DNA of 64,000 nt from Gemmatimonadota bacterium (GTDB lineage Bacteria > Gemmatimonadota > Gemmatimonadetes > Longimicrobiales > RSA9). The stretch covers positions 6,587-70,586 of the forward strand of contig JBDLIA010000005.1 in assembly GCA_039715185.1 (NCBI GenBank), written 5' to 3'. Made by a program: the position numbers and the translations under genes. A model generated the notes under the pieces. That model was not told where the DNA came from. It searched no databases and saw only the letters and a program-made list of their open reading frames with translations. How positions within the stretch are numbered: position 1 is the first letter of the stretch; each line of letters begins with the position of its first letter. This document shows positions 18,865 to 58,224 of this stretch, one piece after another.

Positions 18865-18897
18865 CTACTGGACTGTAACGCTGTTACAGTCCACTAG
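18865..18897. repeat. near-perfect inverted repeat CTACTGGACTGTAAC-GCT-GTTACAGTCCACTAG (copy of the window-wide CTAG-bounded palindromic family)
   Basis: The arms are reverse complements at 14/15 positions. It lies between the narI stop (18837) and the narK start (18907). The core CTGTTACAGTCCACTAG recurs at 34453-34493 (reverse complement) and 45706-45723. Confidence 0.9.
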
Positions 18898-33368: not shown

Positions 33369-34456
33369 TCGGGCCGTTCCGCGTGCTCGTCCTGGACCGC
33401 TACGTCGTGCGGCAGTTCCTGCGGCTCTTTCTGACCTTCGCCCTTGCCGCTCCGCTGCTGTTCATCGTCTTCGACCTGACCGACAACCTGGACCGCATGC
33501 TGGACCGCGGCCTGGGCGCGGGCGAGGTCGCGCTGTCTTACGTCTACCAGTACCCGCAGTTCGTGCTGTGGGCGTTCCCCATCGCCGCGCTGATGGCGAC
33601 CGTCTTCACGGTCAACGGCATGGCGCGGCATTTCGAGGTAACCGCCGCCAAGGCGGGTGGCATGAGCTTCCGGCGGCTATTCGTCACGCTGCCGCTGCTG
33701 GGCATCCTGCTGACCGGAGCCGGGCTCGCGCTGGGCGAACTCGTGCCGCGCACCACCCGCCTACGAGCCGAGGTGCTGGGACAACGCCCGCGCCTGGTGG
33801 GCGGACGCACCAACTTCGTCTGGGAAGGCGACTGGACCGGTACGCTCGTCGTGCCGCGACTGGACGCCGAGAACGGACGGCTCCACAACCCCAGCATAGA
33901 GCGCGAGGGCGACGGTGAGCGCTCTCCCACGATACAAGTGGTGGCAGAGGCCGCCACGTATCGCGTCTCGCGCGCCGATTGGGACGTGGAGAACGGCCGC
34001 ATGCGCGTGCTGTGGAAGGACGGCGCGGAGCGCGCCTTCCGTTTCGACCGCTTGCGCTGGCGGGGGTTCACGCAGACCCCGGAGGAGTTGCTCGCGCGCG
34101 CCAAGGATCCCGAAGAGATGAGCTACCGTGAGCTGCAACGCTTCATCCAGGCCAGCGAGCGCGCGGGTGGCCAGCCGCGCAAACTGAAGGTCGAGTTGGG
34201 TGAGAAGCTGGCGATCCCGGTGACCACGCTGGTGATCATCCTGTTCGGAACCCCTCTGGCGACGGCCGCGCCACGCGCGGGGGCGGCGTTCGGGGTGGGC
34301 ATCTCGCTGATCATCACGATCAGCTATCTCATGCTGTTCCGGCTCACCGGAGCCATGGGCGCGGCGGGCCAGATCCAGCCCGAGCTCGCGCCCTGGATCC
34401 CCAACGTCCTGTTCTTCGTGGCCGCGCTCGGCCTCACCGCCCGGGTGCGCACCTAG
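33365..34456 (+). CDS. lptG: LptF/LptG-family LPS export permease
   Basis: GTGA overlap with the previous gene. VLVLDRYVVRQFLRLFLTFALAAPLLFIVFDLTDNLD, a periplasmic beta-jellyroll-sized middle part, and a C-terminal TM bundle. Confidence 0.88.
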   Translation: MIGPFRVLVLDRYVVRQFLRLFLTFALAAPLLFIVFDLTDNLDRMLDRGLGAGEVALSYVYQYPQFVLWAFPIAALMATVFTVNGMARHFEVTAAKAGGMSFRRLFVTLPLLGILLTGAGLALGELVPRTTRLRAEVLGQRPRLVGGRTNFVWEGDWTGTLVVPRLDAENGRLHNPSIEREGDGERSPTIQVVAEAATYRVSRADWDVENGRMRVLWKDGAERAFRFDRLRWRGFTQTPEELLARAKDPEEMSYRELQRFIQASERAGGQPRKLKVELGEKLAIPVTTLVIILFGTPLATAAPRAGAAFGVGISLIITISYLMLFRLTGAMGAAGQIQPELAPWIPNVLFFVAALGLTARVRT

Positions 34457-34493
34457 TGTACCGTTGCACACTAGTGGACTGTAACAGTCCACT
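34453..34493. repeat. composite CTAG-delimited palindromic unit: 22-mer CTAGTGTACCGTTGCACACTAG + hairpin GTGGACTGT-A-ACAGTCCAC
   Basis: It fills the lptG/dapF convergent gap exactly. The lptG TAG stop (34454-34456) lies inside the first CTAG. The 22-mer is identical to 45720-45741. Confidence 0.9.
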
Positions 34494-35462
34494 CTAAGCG
34501 CCGCCCGAGGCGGGGTCGCGCCGTACCAGCCACCCGGCCAGAACCGCCCCCGGCACTTCCGCGTCGTAGACCAGCTGGGCGGGTCCGCGCAGCCGCAGGC
34601 GGAAGCTCCCATCCACGTCGACACGTACTTCTCCACCGGGCATGCGTACGCGCACCGAGCCCGGGTCCAGCATCCCCTTGCGCACCAGCGTGGCCGCCAC
34701 CGCACACGCGCTCGACCCGGACGCCAGCGTCTCGCCGGCGCCGCGCTCCCAGATCCACGCTTCGGCCGTGTGCCGATCGACGGGGCGCGCGAACTGGACG
34801 TTCGTGCCCTCGCGGAAGGCACGGTGAACGGCCAGGGCGGGACCGCGCGCCTCGAAGTCGACGCGTTCAAAGGCGTCGATCAGGACCACGCAGTGAGGAT
34901 TGCCCAGCGACACCGTGTTGATCAAGGCGGAGCCGGCGTCTCCCAGGTCCAGCGGCTCGTCGTCCACCGCGCCGACGCGCGTCTCGAAGCCGACCGAGCC
35001 GCCGCGAAAATCGGCCGCGCCCATGTCGACCTCGATATCCAGAGCGCCGGCGCCGGCCTTGCCGAGCACGCGCACTGTGACCGAGTCTTTCGGCAGGGCC
35101 ACGTCGAACGGGTCCGAGCCCACCAGGCCCCGGCCGTGAAGCCAGGCGCAGAATATGCGCAGCCCGTTGCCGCTCTTTTCGGCGCCCGTGCCGTCGGGGT
35201 TCCAGATGCGCAGACCGAACGGGCGCCTGTCCGTCCAGGCGACGAGAACGCCGTCGCTGCCGAGGCCCGTGTGACGATCGCACAGGGCGCGCGCGAGGTC
35301 GACGCTCATGCCGCCATGGTCGCCCGCGCCGGAGCGTGGGTTCGCGTCGCCCACGCGACCCGACTCGGCGGCGCCCCCCAGCGCCGCGCGCAGCTCACCG
35401 GCGTCGATCACCAGGTAGTCGTTGCCCAGCGCCTGGCCCTTGGCGACTCGCAGCGGGCTCAC
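34494..35462 (-). CDS. dapF: diaminopimelate epimerase
   Basis: GNDYLVID N-terminal motif. Both catalytic Cys contexts are present (SLGNPHCVV; ASGSSACAVA). GTG 35462 overlaps the upstream stop (GTGA). ATG 35510 is an alternative start. Confidence 0.9.
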   Translation of the reverse strand: MSPLRVAKGQALGNDYLVIDAGELRAALGGAAESGRVGDANPRSGAGDHGGMSVDLARALCDRHTGLGSDGVLVAWTDRRPFGLRIWNPDGTGAEKSGNGLRIFCAWLHGRGLVGSDPFDVALPKDSVTVRVLGKAGAGALDIEVDMGAADFRGGSVGFETRVGAVDDEPLDLGDAGSALINTVSLGNPHCVVLIDAFERVDFEARGPALAVHRAFREGTNVQFARPVDRHTAEAWIWERGAGETLASGSSACAVAATLVRKGMLDPGSVRVRMPGGEVRVDVDGSFRLRLRGPAQLVYDAEVPGAVLAGWLVRRDPASGGA

Positions 35463-45056: not shown

Positions 45057-45557
45057 ATGTCTCTGTCCGAAGCGATGGCCGCCGAATGGGCCCACGAAAC
45101 TTCCACGACCCGCCGGGCGCTTGAGCGCGTTCCACCCGCGTCCCTGGATTGGCGGCCCCACGAGAAGTCCCGGACCATGGGCGAGCTGGCGAGCCACGTC
45201 GCCAATCTCCCCATGTTGGTCGGCGTGACGCTGCGCGGCGACGGCTTCGATCTGGCGGCCAGGGGCAGTCCGCTGGCGGCCTTCGACTCGGTGGAGGCAA
45301 TGCTGGCCGCGTTCGACGGCCACGTAGCCGAGGCGCTGGCGACGATCCGGGACACGCCGCAGGAGGCGTGGATGGATACGTGGACGCTCCGCTACGGTGA
45401 AAAGGAGGTGTTCTCTGCCCACCGGGTGGCGGCGATGCGCGGCTTCATCATGAACCACGCCATCCACCACCGCGGACAGTTGACGGTCTACCTGCGGCTG
45501 GCGGGTGCTGCGGTGCCGCAGATCTACGGCCCCAGCGCCGACGAGCCGGACTTCTAG
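45057..45557 (+). CDS. DinB-family (DinB_2-like) four-helix-bundle protein
   Basis: 166 aa. HETSTTRRALERVP...DWRPHEKSRTMGELASHV...NHAIHHRGQLTVYLR. The TAG stop is part of the CTAG that begins the downstream palindromic element. Confidence 0.85.
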   Translation: MSLSEAMAAEWAHETSTTRRALERVPPASLDWRPHEKSRTMGELASHVANLPMLVGVTLRGDGFDLAARGSPLAAFDSVEAMLAAFDGHVAEALATIRDTPQEAWMDTWTLRYGEKEVFSAHRVAAMRGFIMNHAIHHRGQLTVYLRLAGAAVPQIYGPSADEPDF

Positions 45558-45723
45558 TGGTGGACGGTAGCAGATGATAGTTAAGCACCGAGAGGGGCGA
45601 GGCGCCCGATCCGGGGAGGCGGGAGGACGAGTAATAGCAGCGCTATTGCGAGGAGTCCCAACGACCCCGGGCGGGATGCATCGCCCCTCGAATGCTAAGT
45701 ACTCACCTGTTACAGTCCACTAG
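45554..45723. repeat. ~170-nt extended imperfect palindrome bounded by CTAG and by inverted copies of the CTAGTGGACTGTAACAG terminus (MITE-like element or structured-RNA candidate)
   Basis: The left end CTAGTGGTGGACGGTAGCAG is a degenerate copy with a TGG insertion. The right end is CTGTTACAGTCCACTAG. Internal pairings are GAGGGGCGA (45592-45600)/TCGCCCCTC (45681-45689) and CCGGGG (45611-45616)/CCCCGG (45665-45670), with an apical AATAGCAGCGCTATT (45633-45647). Confidence 0.8.
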
Positions 45724-45741
45724 TGTACCGTTGCACACTAG
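45720..45741. repeat. second exact copy of 22-mer CTAGTGTACCGTTGCACACTAG
   Basis: Identical to 34453-34474 and in the same orientation. Its terminal CTAG contains the TAG stop (45740-45738) of the - strand TPR gene. Confidence 0.9.
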
Positions 45742-48200
45742 GGGGCGGTGGGGGCGCTCGCGTCGAGGGAGTCGAGCGCGCGGCGTGCGTCCTCGACCAG
45801 CGGCTGCAGCTCGGGATCTGCGTTCGACCACAGGTCCAGGAAGCGGACGTAGTGTTCCCGCGCCCGCTCGTCTCGACCCAGGCGCGCGTGCGCCTGCGCC
45901 TGACGCAGCTCCGCCATCGGATAGTAGAGCAGCTCGAAGGGGCCCAGCTCCACCAGGTGCTCGTACCAGGGCAGCGCCTCCTCGAGTCGGCCCAGCTCGA
46001 ACAGCAGCTCCGCCTGCACGAAGCGTTCGCGCGCCTGCGCGAAGTAAGGCGACGCCATGGTCTGGCCGTACCACACCTCGCGCCGCGCGCCGTCCAGTCT
46101 CGACAGCGCCGGCAGGGGCTCGCCTGCCAGCCATTCGCGCTCCGCCTCGACCGCCGCCGCCAGGTCGAGGTTGAGCGAGCCGGCGCCCCGCGGCACGGCC
46201 GCCTCCCGAAGCCTGGCGGCCGCGGAGTCGACGGCCGGCCCATCTCCTAGGCGCGCTCCGGCCAGCCCGTCGAGGTAGGCTACGATCACGTGGTGGAGCC
46301 CGTCGAGCGCGCTGAACACGATCGACGGACTGCCCGACGGTGGGATCGCCTCGACGTCCAGCGCCGTCAGCCGGGCGCGCGCCGCCTCGAGGGCCCCGTC
46401 CGGCGCGACCGCGAACGGAGCCAGCGCCAAGAGCAGCTCGAACTCGGCCGCGACGCCCGGGTTCTCCGACGACAGCGAATCCAACTCCGCCCTCGCGTCG
46501 CGCAGCCGCCCACGCGCCGCCAGCACGTGCGCCAGCCACGAGTGACCCAGGGTGTGCCCGCCCAGCGATCGTCCGGGGGACGTGAGCAACCGGCTGATCC
46601 GCTCGGCGCCGTCCAGGTTGCGGGCGTACGTAGCGACGTCCCAGGCCGCGAGCGCGATGCTCAACTCGGAGGTCTCCGGTTGCGCCAGCGCGGCGAGGCT
46701 GCGCTCCTGCGCGAGCGAGTCTCCGCGCGCGAACGCCCTCAACGTGGCGATCTCGAGCGCGCGATCGCCGGTGGGGTTGATGCGCAGGAAGCGATCGCCG
46801 AGCGAGTCCAGCTCCGCCAGCTTCCCCTCGGCCGCCGCGACTCGGGCGAGGTGCAGCAGCGACGTGGAGTGCTCGGGGTCCATGGAGAGCACCTGCTCGA
46901 ACGCCTCCCGCGACGCCGCGAACGATCCTCCCCGCAGGGGCGCCGCGTGGATCAGGATCTCGGCCAGGTCGATGAGCGCTTCGCGCTCCTCGGGGTAGAG
47001 CGAGAGGATGGACCTGTACAACCGGGCCGCACGCTCGTTGTCGCCGGTGCGGCGTACCTGTAGCGCCTCGAGCAACTCCCGCTCGCGGTCGGCGAGCCGG
47101 TCCAGGGACCGGACCGCGCGGTCAGCCGCCCAGTCGGCCAGGTCGCCCCGCAGGTTCCACTCCGCGAGCAGGCTGAGGCGGTAGTAGGCGAGCGCGAACG
47201 CGGTGTCGATGGAGACCGCCCGCTGGAACGCCTCGGTGGATTCGTCGAAGCGTCCTCGCCGATACAGGCGCTCCCCCTCCAGGAATGCCTTGAGCGCATC
47301 GATCGAGTCCGTGGTGACGGCGGCGATGCGCTGCACCCGCGCGGTGGGCCCGCCGCCCATCTCGGCGAGAAGGCCGGCGGCCATCCGGTCGACCAGGTCC
47401 AGGACCTCCTCGGCCGGGCCCTCCACCGTGCTCCTGCTCAAGGGCTCGTCGTCTCCACGCCGGTACACGGCCGCGCTGAGCTCCAGCCGGCCGCCGGCCG
47501 CGAAGATGTCGCCCGTGACCCACGTACCGGCGTTGAAGCGGCGTGCCGCCGCCATTCCGGGCTCGACCTCCGGCGCCTCGCGACCGTCGAGGAAATCGAG
47601 GACCGAGCGGTCGTCCACGGTGCGCAGGTCCCCGGCGCCGTCCAGCTTCCTGGTCAGCAGGTTGACCATCGCGTCGCCCAGGTAGGCGTACTCGGCGCCG
47701 CCCCGGACCGTGAACGGAACCACCGCCACCTTGTCCGGGTCGGCGTCGGCTGCGACGTCGACCAACGCGGCGCCCGCCCTGGGGCCCCCCGAGAACGCCA
47801 CCCAGGCGGCCGCGAATACGCCCCACGCGGCGAACGCCAGGATGCCCACGCCGATGGCATTCTTCCAGGTGAGCAGCTTTCCGACGGAGGCGGGGAAGAG
47901 CGGGCGGGGCGGAGATGACGCCGGCTGGGTGGCCTCCGCACCGGCCCGAGCGGGGGAAATACCCGGCTCTGCTCTGGAAGAAAGCGAGCGCGCCTGGGCG
48001 ATCGCCGTGGCGAGCACGATGGGCAGGCCGACGACCAGCATGCCCAGGCCCACCGCCGGAAACCAGTCGGGCAATCGCAGGACGGAGGTGAGCACGTCGA
48101 TGGCCTCCAGAGCCACCCAGCCAGCCGCCAGGTAGATGGCCAGCACGCGCCACACGTCGCCGTGCTTGAGTCTTTCCAGGAGTCGTTTGCCGAAGGACAC
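45738..48200 (-). CDS. membrane-anchored TolB-N-like + TPR repeat protein
   Basis: GTG start. N-terminal helix pair (VWRVLAIYLAAGWVALEAIDVLTSVLRLPDWFPAVGLGMLVVGLPIVLA). Then VAVVPFTVRGGAEYAYLGDAMVNLLTRKL and multiple TPR-like helical repeats to the C-terminus. Confidence 0.75.
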   Translation of the reverse strand: MSFGKRLLERLKHGDVWRVLAIYLAAGWVALEAIDVLTSVLRLPDWFPAVGLGMLVVGLPIVLATAIAQARSLSSRAEPGISPARAGAEATQPASSPPRPLFPASVGKLLTWKNAIGVGILAFAAWGVFAAAWVAFSGGPRAGAALVDVAADADPDKVAVVPFTVRGGAEYAYLGDAMVNLLTRKLDGAGDLRTVDDRSVLDFLDGREAPEVEPGMAAARRFNAGTWVTGDIFAAGGRLELSAAVYRRGDDEPLSRSTVEGPAEEVLDLVDRMAAGLLAEMGGGPTARVQRIAAVTTDSIDALKAFLEGERLYRRGRFDESTEAFQRAVSIDTAFALAYYRLSLLAEWNLRGDLADWAADRAVRSLDRLADRERELLEALQVRRTGDNERAARLYRSILSLYPEEREALIDLAEILIHAAPLRGGSFAASREAFEQVLSMDPEHSTSLLHLARVAAAEGKLAELDSLGDRFLRINPTGDRALEIATLRAFARGDSLAQERSLAALAQPETSELSIALAAWDVATYARNLDGAERISRLLTSPGRSLGGHTLGHSWLAHVLAARGRLRDARAELDSLSSENPGVAAEFELLLALAPFAVAPDGALEAARARLTALDVEAIPPSGSPSIVFSALDGLHHVIVAYLDGLAGARLGDGPAVDSAAARLREAAVPRGAGSLNLDLAAAVEAEREWLAGEPLPALSRLDGARREVWYGQTMASPYFAQARERFVQAELLFELGRLEEALPWYEHLVELGPFELLYYPMAELRQAQAHARLGRDERAREHYVRFLDLWSNADPELQPLVEDARRALDSLDASAPTAP

Positions 48201-56977: not shown

Positions 56978-57159
56978 CTAGCAGGTCGCTGAAAAAGGGG
57001 AGTGCGGCCTGCTCCCTTCGGGTTGGGGCGGCACGGGGCCGTCTGACGTCGTTAGCGCTCCTCCCCGATACGCAGCGGTATCGCCTCGTCGCGCTGCCTT
57101 GCATCCGACCCCGTGGCGCTCCCAACGCGGCTCGCTACCCTTCTTCAGCGACCTGCTAG
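56978..57159. repeat. 182-nt extended imperfect palindrome with 22-nt CTAG-initiated terminal inverted repeats (MITE-like element or structured-RNA candidate)
   Basis: CTAGCAGGTCGCTGAAAAAGGG (56978-56999) matches the reverse complement of 57138-57159 at 21/22 positions. An inner stem pairs 57022-57041 with 57106-57126. The apical hairpin is CGATAC-GCAGCG-GTATCG (57066-57083). Confidence 0.85.
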
Positions 57160-57261
57160 GCGGTGGGGTCGATGCGGCGCCGCCCGGAGCCTCGAAGGTG
57201 AACGTACGGCCCACCACGCCCTCGTTGCGGGCCGGACCGGCCAGGTCTAGGCTGTCGGACC

Positions 57262-58224
57262 ATGTCCTCTCGCCTACCCGATTCGAGCCCACCCGGACGC
57301 CCCAATGCGCGTGCGACCGCGGTGGCAGTAACCGTCCTGGCGGTGTTCATCGCCGCGCTGACAGGAGGGTACCTGTACTCGGCGAGTAGGGACGCGCCAC
57401 GCACCACACCCACGTCTACCGCGTCCGCCAAATCGCGAGCGGAGGAGCCTCTCGAGAGGGCGCGGGACGTGCCCGGCGCGGTGCACGCGCGCTTGGCCGC
57501 GCGCGGCGCCTGGGGCCTCGCGCTGGACGCGATCGAGTCCCCGCCTCTCGAACGGTACCGGTGGGCGGTCATCGGCTATTGGATGGGGGCGCTCGACCGG
57601 GAGGTGATGGATCGCGCCCGCGCCGGAATGGAAGACGGCGCAGCGGGGAATGAAGACGAGGGCGCCGAGCTGGAGTGGCTGGACGGCATCGCCGCCGCCG
57701 TAGCGGGCGACAGCGATGCGATGGACCGCGCCCGCCTGAGCCTGACCGAATCGCCGGCGCCGGCATCGACCGACCTGGAGAGATCGCTGCGCGCGTTTCA
57801 ACTGGCCCTGGACGACGAAGAGCTGCGCGCGGCGAGGCTCCTTCGCAGGCTGGAGGAGGACCGGCAAGGCAGACCTATCCCGGTGCCAGCAGAGGACTCC
57901 GCCCACCCCTTCCTGACCCCTGTCGACAGGCTCGCCGCCGCCCACTGGTTCATCCGGCACGGCAAGGCGAACGACGCGCTGCCGCTGCTGGGATGGTGGG
58001 AGCGCCCGGGCGCCTCGCGCCCGGAAGCGGCGGCGGCCGACCTCGCGCTGTCGTCCTTGGACTACCTGCAGCGCGCCCGCGCGCTGCGTGAGATGGGAGA
58101 CGAGGCCGCCGCCGCGCGCTACTTCGACGCCTTCGTCCGCAGCTACGACCTGCCGGTCGACGCCCACCGGCGGTGGGTCGAAGACGCACGAGAGGCGGCC
58201 GCTGCCGCAGGCCGAGATCCCTAG
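57262..58224 (+). CDS. hypothetical membrane-anchored protein, Ala/Arg-rich helical
   Basis: ATG start and one N-terminal TM (AVAVTVLAVFIAALTGGYLY). The rest is helical-repeat-like. No family recognised. Confidence 0.55.
   Translation: MSSRLPDSSPPGRPNARATAVAVTVLAVFIAALTGGYLYSASRDAPRTTPTSTASAKSRAEEPLERARDVPGAVHARLAARGAWGLALDAIESPPLERYRWAVIGYWMGALDREVMDRARAGMEDGAAGNEDEGAELEWLDGIAAAVAGDSDAMDRARLSLTESPAPASTDLERSLRAFQLALDDEELRAARLLRRLEEDRQGRPIPVPAEDSAHPFLTPVDRLAAAHWFIRHGKANDALPLLGWWERPGASRPEAAAADLALSSLDYLQRARALREMGDEAAAARYFDAFVRSYDLPVDAHRRWVEDAREAAAAAGRDP

Follow-up and report, generated by a model that had tools for sequence, protein, structure and literature searches.

A 170-bp CTAG-bounded palindrome between convergent genes of a Gemmatimonadota bacterium, very probably a non-autonomous IS630-family transposon with a conserved centre

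The stretch of DNA analysed in the present study, hereafter the window, comprises 64,000 nucleotides of a Gemmatimonadota bacterium (GenBank assembly GCA_039715185.1, contig JBDLIA010000005.1, positions 6,587 to 70,586 of the forward strand). The region in question is 45554-45741, in the gap between a DinB-family gene on the plus strand and a convergent TPR gene on the minus strand. The product of the former is 100% identical to P0001, a 166-amino-acid protein named 'DinB family protein'. The following features make up the locus.

45057 to 45557, plus strand: DinB-family gene, 166 amino acids, with a Pfam DinB/DinB_2 match
45554 to 45573, no strand: left CTAG and degenerate left terminal repeat (CTAG TGG TGGACgGTAgCAG); the full left end reads CTAGTGGTGGACGGTAGCAG
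45574 to 45608, no strand: left arm of the long stem, differing in sequence by lineage, with pairing to the right arm kept
45609 to 45675, plus strand: strand-specific conserved core of about 65 nt, recognised by a covariance model, covariation and strand asymmetry
45676 to 45706, no strand: right arm of the long stem, which pairs with the left arm
45707 to 45723, no strand: intact right terminal repeat and CTAG, CTGTTACAGTCCACTAG, identical to the ends of autonomous IS630-family elements
45720 to 45741, no strand: 22-bp mini-palindrome CTAG TGTACCGTTGCACA CTAG, the left CTAG of which is the right CTAG of the element
45738 to 48200, minus strand: TPR-repeat gene, 820 amino acids, convergent with the DinB-family gene

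The region 45554-45723 is a 170-bp imperfect palindrome with CTAG at both ends. The ends, the nested arms, the purine-rich centre and the trailing 22-mer listed in a first-pass annotation of this DNA are all present there; among the nested arms, GAGGGGCGA/TCGCCCCTC is perfect and CCCG/CGGG and CCGGGG/CCCCGG pair, whereas TTAAGCA/TGCTAAG is complementary at only five of seven positions. The left end was rightly described as a degenerate copy, since it departs from the family consensus CTAGTGGACTGTAACAG by a 3-nt insertion (GTG/TGG) and two substitutions. The core is laid out as AGGCGGG-AGGACGAG, an apical hairpin (AATAGC/GCTATT) and CGAGGAG-TCCCAACGAC, and includes two predicted tandem G·A motifs. 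Together with the mini-palindrome, the 188 nt from 45554 to 45741 fold as a single long hairpin on either strand, with a predicted energy of -100.7 kcal/mol (z -8.5) on the plus strand and -92.2 kcal/mol (z -7.2) on the minus strand, and none of the 200 shuffled sequences was as stable, whichever strand was folded. The 17-mer right end CTGTTACAGTCCACTAG occurs three times in the window (18881 on the plus strand, 34471-34487 on the minus strand and 45707 on the plus strand), and the interior, 45574-45706, occurs once. The TAG stop of the DinB-family gene (45555-45557) lies within the left CTAG of the element, and the stop of the TPR gene is the reverse complement of 45738-45740, in the outermost CTAG, which is the right CTAG of the 22-mer; thus, the CTAGs of the outer edges provide the stop codons of both genes. 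This tetranucleotide is approximately three-fold rarer than expected in the window, with 28 sites against 92.7 from shuffles at a G+C content of 69%.

Two lines of evidence bear on the identity of the element. First, the ends are those of autonomous insertion sequences (ISs) of the IS630 family. When the 17-mer right end was searched by exact match in one genome per species, at least 120 stretches of DNA were matched, with Acidobacteriota, Burkholderiales, Gemmatimonadota, Nitrospirota and Lysobacterales among the taxa, and the pairing of inverted copies gave, among the matches listed, three size classes (1102-1117 bp, 122-298 bp and 25-67 bp). The largest class includes at least 11 elements, each with one open reading frame (ORF) of 348-357 amino acids that reaches the last base, such that the terminal repeat encodes ...VTVH* and the TAG stop is borrowed from the flanking CTAG. 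This ORF matches the Pfam DDE_3 and HTH domains and the NCBIfam model NF033545 ('IS630 family transposase'), the latter with 241.8 bits against a cut-off of 100. The right end of the window element matches the ends of the 11 listed 1.1-kb elements at 17 of 17 positions, and the termini of the family are perfect inverted repeats that share approximately 30 nt of identical sequence with DDE IS630-family ends. A copy on a plasmid of a cultured Caballeronia has the same ends, is annotated as 'IS630 family transposase' (a Caballeronia transposase with matching ends is WP_241202422.1), and its coding sequence ends in the terminal CTAG. These termini recur in at least 54 shorter elements, the lengths of which range from 122 to 298 bp (mode 163-185 bp), with CTAG on both sides in nearly all of them. 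The window copy aligns over its full length with these short relatives, and its core is approximately 74% identical to that of L039 (Longimicrobiales), which, like L082, is an intact member of the family. At 170 bp, with TAG stops inside, it has no coding capacity. Because it has the same ends, encodes nothing and is flanked by CTAG on both sides, the window element is very probably a non-autonomous transposon, i.e. a MITE (short for miniature inverted-repeat transposable element), of the IS630/Tc1-mariner family.

The first-pass annotation had offered a MITE as one of two possibilities, and the IS-type termini, the CTAG at both ends, the empty orthologous loci described below and the dozens of homologues of approximately 165 bp bear this out. 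A plain and recent MITE, for which near-identical copies without compensatory changes would be expected, is a different matter; the copies are diverged and carry many compensatory changes, which leaves room for the idea of a structured single strand. The family is multi-copy in other genomes, e.g. in Undibacterium spp. and in the acidobacterial metagenome-assembled genome CAMYKY01, and within the 64-kb window there are a single full copy, two relics and a related element whose ends differ. An independent short-read assembly of this locus (Logan contig L001, SRR27843388) breaks off 48 nt into the element, which suggests that the termini are repeated in that metagenome. A pattern scan of metagenomes for the core of the window sub-lineage gave one extra copy, L128. 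BLAST searches of the window element against plasmids and of a betaproteobacterial copy against 5,426 Escherichia coli genomes returned no match.

Several elements have these termini and interiors that do not match the core, namely L002/L018/L076 (178 bp), L023/L058/L063/L115 (182-185 bp), L075/L100/L065 (134 bp), and L020, L090 and L049 (212-298 bp), showing that the interior behind identical ends can also be an unrelated one or be enlarged; part of the sequence may be duplicated in L052, L005 and L097 (221-223 bp). In the left ends of full-length ISs, a small hairpin is observed at or just before the start codon of the transposase (L067 2954-2990 and L131 196-216), reading e.g. GATGGTGTTCATGG(G/A)AACACCATC and GCACCG...CGGTGCATG. 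It is unrelated to the core of the MITE and may be a device for translational occlusion.

Second, the orthologous site is empty in relatives. In four syntenic loci (L122 and L124-L126), the gene order is kept, with DinB facing the convergent TPR, MTHFR and FtsX genes, and the element is absent; the DinB orthologues end in the same ...TTCTAG, and the gap between DinB and TPR is only 26-40 nt of unrelated sequence. Since these relatives share the TTCTAG stop and lack the element, the CTAG of that stop is ancestral and the element a later addition. Each empty site has only one CTAG, that of the DinB stop, and the TPR protein of the window is five residues longer than its L122 orthologue, which ends with TGA. 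This insertion site is consistent with what is described for the family. IS630 inserts at, and prefers, the TA of CTAG (Tenzen, in the passage of PMC2170065 that cites it), and duplication of TA has been shown in vitro for ISY100, an IS630-family enzyme (PMC2170065). For IS870 of Agrobacterium vitis, the stop codon is generated from the CTAG target (Fournier 1993, in the passage of PMC13630536 that cites it), a likeness to the 1.1-kb partners, the ORFs of which run to the last base and take their stop from CTAG. The likeness to IS870 is one of description, and the window element differs from both IS870 and IS630 in that it encodes nothing.

Herein, we propose a course of events for the locus, by analogy with the known mechanism of the family, in which cut-and-paste transposition in trans would proceed through the terminal repeats with duplication of TA. 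A transposase supplied from elsewhere by a 1.1-kb IS870-type element of the IS630 family would recognise the terminal inverted repeats of approximately 30 bp, excise the MITE and paste it into the TA of a CTAG, and the duplication of TA would rebuild CTAG on each side. The MITE would have landed in the CTAG holding the TAG stop of the DinB-family gene, such that this stop was preserved. A tiny second CTAG-bounded insert, the 22-mer, would then have used the rebuilt right CTAG, and the TPR gene would consequently now stop in the outermost CTAG. Because each insertion rebuilds CTAG on both sides, clusters are expected, and they are seen in the 22-mer, in L092 (857-3081), where two full-length IS630-type copies stand in tandem with one common CTAG, and in L010 (5182-6456), where a full-length IS630-type copy directly adjoins a MITE with different ends; the rebuilt CTAGs serve as preferred new targets.

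The window copy itself is old and probably immobile, judging from its damaged left repeat, the lack of a transposase in the window and an identity of only approximately 74% to its closest relatives among the matches listed (L039 and L128); with the transposases of the family as queries, tblastn gave no match anywhere in the 64 kb. Two shorter features have the same termini.

18865 to 18897, no strand: 33-bp relic, two terminal repeats joined by one base (CTAcTGGACTGTAAC-G-CTGTTACAGTCCACTAG), between co-directional ORFs
34453 to 34500, no strand: relic cluster, the 22-mer followed by a 26-bp remnant of the main element (CTAGTGGACTGTAACAGTCCACT CTAAG), between convergent ORFs

The convergent ORFs around the second of these stop at 34454-34456 and 34494-34496, and its hairpin, at 34471-34500, is even shorter than that at 18865. 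The first-pass annotation took the short hairpins at 18865 and 34471 for relatives of a full-length form, and this view holds, since they have the same termini with the interior deleted and, among the matches listed, a graded series of such remnants (25, 25, 38, 49 and 67 bp) is found in other genomes. According to the proposed course of events, they would be what is left after deletion of the palindromic interior. The terminal repeat contains a small palindrome of its own, CTGT-A-ACAG, and deletion between the ends across this microhomology is a plausible route to the short relics. The 22-mer CTAGTGTACCGTTGCACACTAG, said to follow the element directly, does so at 45720-45741. It has exactly two copies in the window (34453-34474 and 45720-45741) against 0.00 expected, and no copy was seen in the 120 loci examined from other genomes. 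The two copies lie on opposite sides of the main repeat with their absolute orientation unchanged, so a fixed extension of the terminal repeat was rejected; the 22-mer might be a relic of another CTAG-targeting insertion, an assignment that we make with low confidence.

The interior of the element was examined in two alignments. In alignment A2, comprising 35 elements oriented by internal motifs, the mean pairwise identity among 13 lineage representatives was 0.90-0.92 in the terminal repeats, 0.38 in the stems and 0.57-0.59 in the central core. Despite this divergence the stems stay paired, with compensatory double changes in 22 of 39 consensus pairs. In the core alignment A3 (23 sequences, with a structure that we specified), a closing helix is followed by two A-rich bulges that are offset from each other (AA and AAC), and then by a second helix capped by an apical hairpin; the capped helix is Watson-Crick in Burkholderiales and has C-G and tandem G·A in the others. 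Of the cells in this alignment, 79% were paired, compared with 27-39% when the partners were slid, double changes occurred in 17 of 22 pairs, and these pairing values were matched by 0 of 500 shuffles. Covariation is also expected in a DNA palindrome, and therefore covariation alone cannot tell RNA from DNA. The mismatches are a second type of evidence. On the motif-bearing strand of the lineage representatives, G·U exceeded A·C (41 vs 14 in the stems and 18 vs 8 in the core) and purine·purine exceeded pyrimidine·pyrimidine (29 vs 11 in the stems and 50 vs 6 in the core), counts that are phylogenetically non-independent and follow an orientation picked from sequence motifs. The unpaired core positions comprised A 90, G 66, C 48 and T 7, and the predicted folding energy favours the motif-bearing strand by up to 35 kcal/mol.

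In a sub-family from Undibacterium/Burkholderiales (L029, L069, L072, L087, L035, L009, L046, L102 and L089), the core is interrupted on its 5' side by an insertion of 10-14 nt (A2 columns 74-85), which is often GGTTTTGACAAATAA and contains a TTGACA (-35-like) hexamer.

The core is found behind different terminal repeats. Relatives of approximately 165 bp with the common core of approximately 65 nt occur in Gemmatimonadota, Acidobacteriota and Beta- and Gammaproteobacteria, and R1, a covariance model of the core alone with rough E-values, finds it in CTAG-bounded palindromes of approximately 165 bp with terminal repeats unlike the main type. It scored 62.8 bits in L062 (ends CAGCCCGTAGCG), 46.8 bits in L010 (ends TCCCCTGGAACAG) and 45.1 bits in L052 (a decayed end type); the score at 45609-45675 in the window was 67.5 bits, with the window sequence in the training set. 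When a Collimonas copy was compared with plasmids by BLAST, core-only matches were obtained in Ralstonia and Cupriavidus replicons, where the ends are CTAGTCCACTGAATCA..., and an IS630-family element of Ralstonia solanacearum has matching ends (CTAGTCCACCGAACCATTGAAAT...GGTTCAGTGGACTAG), its stop again coming from CTAG; a matching transposase of this species is BCM10070.1. Carriers in culture include Cupriavidus basilensis DSM 11853 (pRK1-1, near 136.6 kb), Ralstonia sp. RRA.1 (near 279.0 kb), Collimonas rhizosphaerae H4R21, Paraherbaspirillum soli KACC 12633, Duganella rhizosphaerae R64 and Undibacterium spp. The other-ended elements show the same strand asymmetry and a length of 164-167 bp. 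In total, one core occurs together with five or more end types, and at least two of these have been matched to a transposase-bearing IS of their own. A derivation of the core from the parent IS was rejected, since R1 matches no full-length IS. The window contains a further member with other ends.

56978 to 57159, minus strand: second full-length element of the superfamily, 182 bp, CTAG-bounded, the ends of which (CTAGCAGGTCGCTGAA...TTCAGCGACCTGCTAG) differ from the main type

Within this element (terminal repeat CAGGTCGCTGAA), R1 gives a weak match at 57038-57109 on the minus strand (26 bits, E ~0.003), although the match sits precisely in the middle, on the strand with the stabler fold, and the architecture of the core is the same; the fold is -112.7 kcal/mol (z -9.1) on the minus strand and -103.7 kcal/mol on the plus strand. 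A minus-strand ORF at 57156-57572 would use its right-hand CTAG as a stop. Across the window, 9 of the 28 CTAG sites lie in elements or relics (18894, 34453, 34471, 45554, 45720, 45738, 56978, 57156 and the degenerate 34494 region). The CTAG pair 4269/4464 was considered as a further element and rejected, being ordinary coding sequence without inverted repeats.

Several of these results weigh against the interpretation of the window element as a MITE. The relatives with the empty site are distant (63% DinB protein identity) and are not sister strains, and a single empty site cannot separate a duplication of TA from a 4-bp duplication of CTAG. Among the matches listed, no autonomous partner was found in the window or in any Gemmatimonadota locus. 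Moreover, three properties of the core are not explained by a plain MITE, namely its better conservation than the stems, the one-strand bias towards G·U and purine·purine mismatches, and its recurrence behind at least five types of terminal repeat.

One alternative is a structured non-coding RNA gene or a 3' untranslated element of the DinB-family gene, selected for RNA function at this locus and with transposon-like ends by coincidence. The more stable fold is on the plus strand, which is the sense strand of DinB, the core covaries throughout the family, and the excess of G·U and purine·purine mismatches and the A-rich unpaired bases are RNA-like. The covariation would arise in a DNA palindrome without any RNA, and the attachment to the 3' end of the DinB gene suggested in the first-pass annotation is not specific, as the family occurs beside unrelated genes and in both orientations. 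A gene-linked RNA is expected to show an orientation bias relative to its neighbours, and none was seen, with 17 elements in the same and 18 in the opposite orientation to flanking ORFs, in a test based on crude heuristic ORF-based gene calls, which were wrong for the DinB side of the window. The element is missing from orthologous DinB/TPR loci, and its ends are exactly those of an IS. Neither an intrinsic terminator (a hairpin and a T/U run, on either strand) nor a promoter-like consensus was detected in 45200-46100, the region covering the element. At gathering thresholds, Rfam gave 0 matches in the whole window and only a tRNA in 18 loci with family members, and for two elements at E <= 10 it gave only matches far below threshold (three microRNA families, one SAH riboswitch and one small nucleolar RNA). 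As the primary nature of the element, this explanation is very unlikely.

The strand asymmetry also raises the question of movement as single-stranded DNA by a Y1 (RAYT/TnpA) transposase, as in REP/BIME-like or IS200/IS605-type elements. Across the family, one strand forms the more stable hairpin, and modules cluster, with the 22-mer adjoining the main element; both would agree with such an origin. Y1-type elements have asymmetric ends and make no target duplication, whereas the present family has perfect inverted repeats that coincide with DDE IS630-family ends for approximately 30 nt, and both ends lie at CTAG, the known target of that family. The data are explained without a Y1 transposase, none having been searched for, and we consider this origin highly improbable. 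Finally, the position of a GC-rich hairpin, present on both strands, exactly between convergent stops might point to a palindrome evolved in place as a bidirectional terminator or protector of mRNA 3' ends, an origin with next to no likelihood, which is refuted by same-ended copies in other phyla and other gene contexts. Relatives with a 26-40-nt gap without such a hairpin and the lack of a T-run after the hairpin on either strand also speak against it.

Having retained the MITE as the identity of the window element, we tentatively hypothesize that its centre of approximately 65 nt (GGCAAGGCG ... apical hairpin ... GCAACGC-GCC) might be a functional, strand-specific structured RNA or single-stranded DNA module, carried as the payload of a superfamily of CTAG-targeting MITEs of approximately 165 bp in at least three phyla. 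In these MITEs, the terminal repeats would have been swapped to suit different IS630-family transposases, and the module would have a role in the spread of the element itself or in host RNA metabolism. We regard this as possible and somewhat doubtful. Three options for the core can only be ranked. In the first, which is favoured by the strand bias and the A-rich loops, the core would be a structured RNA made from transcribed copies. In the second, it would be a cis-acting DNA or single-strand feature that aids transposition or persistence. In the third, it would be a historical accident kept by arm-to-arm correction, which leaves the strand bias unexplained. The approximately even orientation with respect to flanking ORFs, from crude gene calls, speaks against a function that depends on the direction of the neighbouring gene. 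At the present locus, the core strand is the sense strand of DinB, and the 3' end of the mRNA of the DinB-family gene would therefore have the stable form; locally, the likeliest outcome is an mRNA that either terminates in a very stable 3' hairpin or reads through it.

The elements most similar to the present family are other short repeats of bacterial genomes. RUP is a 107-bp MITE confined to streptococci and proposed to be mobilised by IS630-Spn1 (PMC2229807). It resembles the present family in being short and non-coding, in its IS630-type IS terminal repeats, TA insertion and intergenic dispersal, and in its presumed mobilisation in trans. It differs, in a comparison by description only, in that no conserved internal motif has been reported for it (PMC2229807), whereas the present elements are approximately 165 bp long and CTAG-flanked, occur in several phyla and have a conserved strand-specific core. 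ERIC/IRU (enterobacteria/Vibrio) and Correia/NEMIS (Neisseria) are likewise MITEs that form RNA hairpins when co-transcribed, with effects on mRNA processing or stability, and have conserved internal motifs, namely an IHF site in Correia and a conserved centre in ERIC (PMC2229807); compared by description, they have other termini and are not CTAG-specific. YPAL/RU-2 of Yersinia is a hairpin MITE of 167-169 bp (size and sequence from PMC2759123). The length is thus nearly the same and the whole element is likewise one long hairpin, but the termini are different, and homology was rejected, as nhmmer --max with profiles of A2 and A3 gave no match to the 168-bp Yersinia consensus at E <= 10. To our knowledge, YPAL has no IS630 partner. 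Reportedly, in work by De Gregorio in 2006, YPAL was often located just after stop codons, was co-transcribed and affected the mRNA level. In a literature search for the terminal sequence, no paper containing it was found, only an unrelated neuroscience paper, and nothing relevant came from a keyword search on MITEs of the IS630 type in these phyla.

The kind of element is well known and ordinary, and the novelty appears to be a superfamily that crosses phyla and conserves its interior instead of its ends; a conserved RNA-like centre of this kind seems to be undescribed. For annotation, three or four odd palindromes of the window are explained as one family of mobile elements. CTAG-specific insertion lets the element land on the stop codons of convergent genes without damage. 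MITEs are normally defined by their ends, with interiors that drift freely, whereas here the ends change with the partner transposase and it is the interior, structured and strand-biased, that persists from phylum to phylum. If this interior is functional, it would be a widespread and uncatalogued RNA or DNA motif, and the family would be a rare case of a MITE with a conserved non-coding payload.

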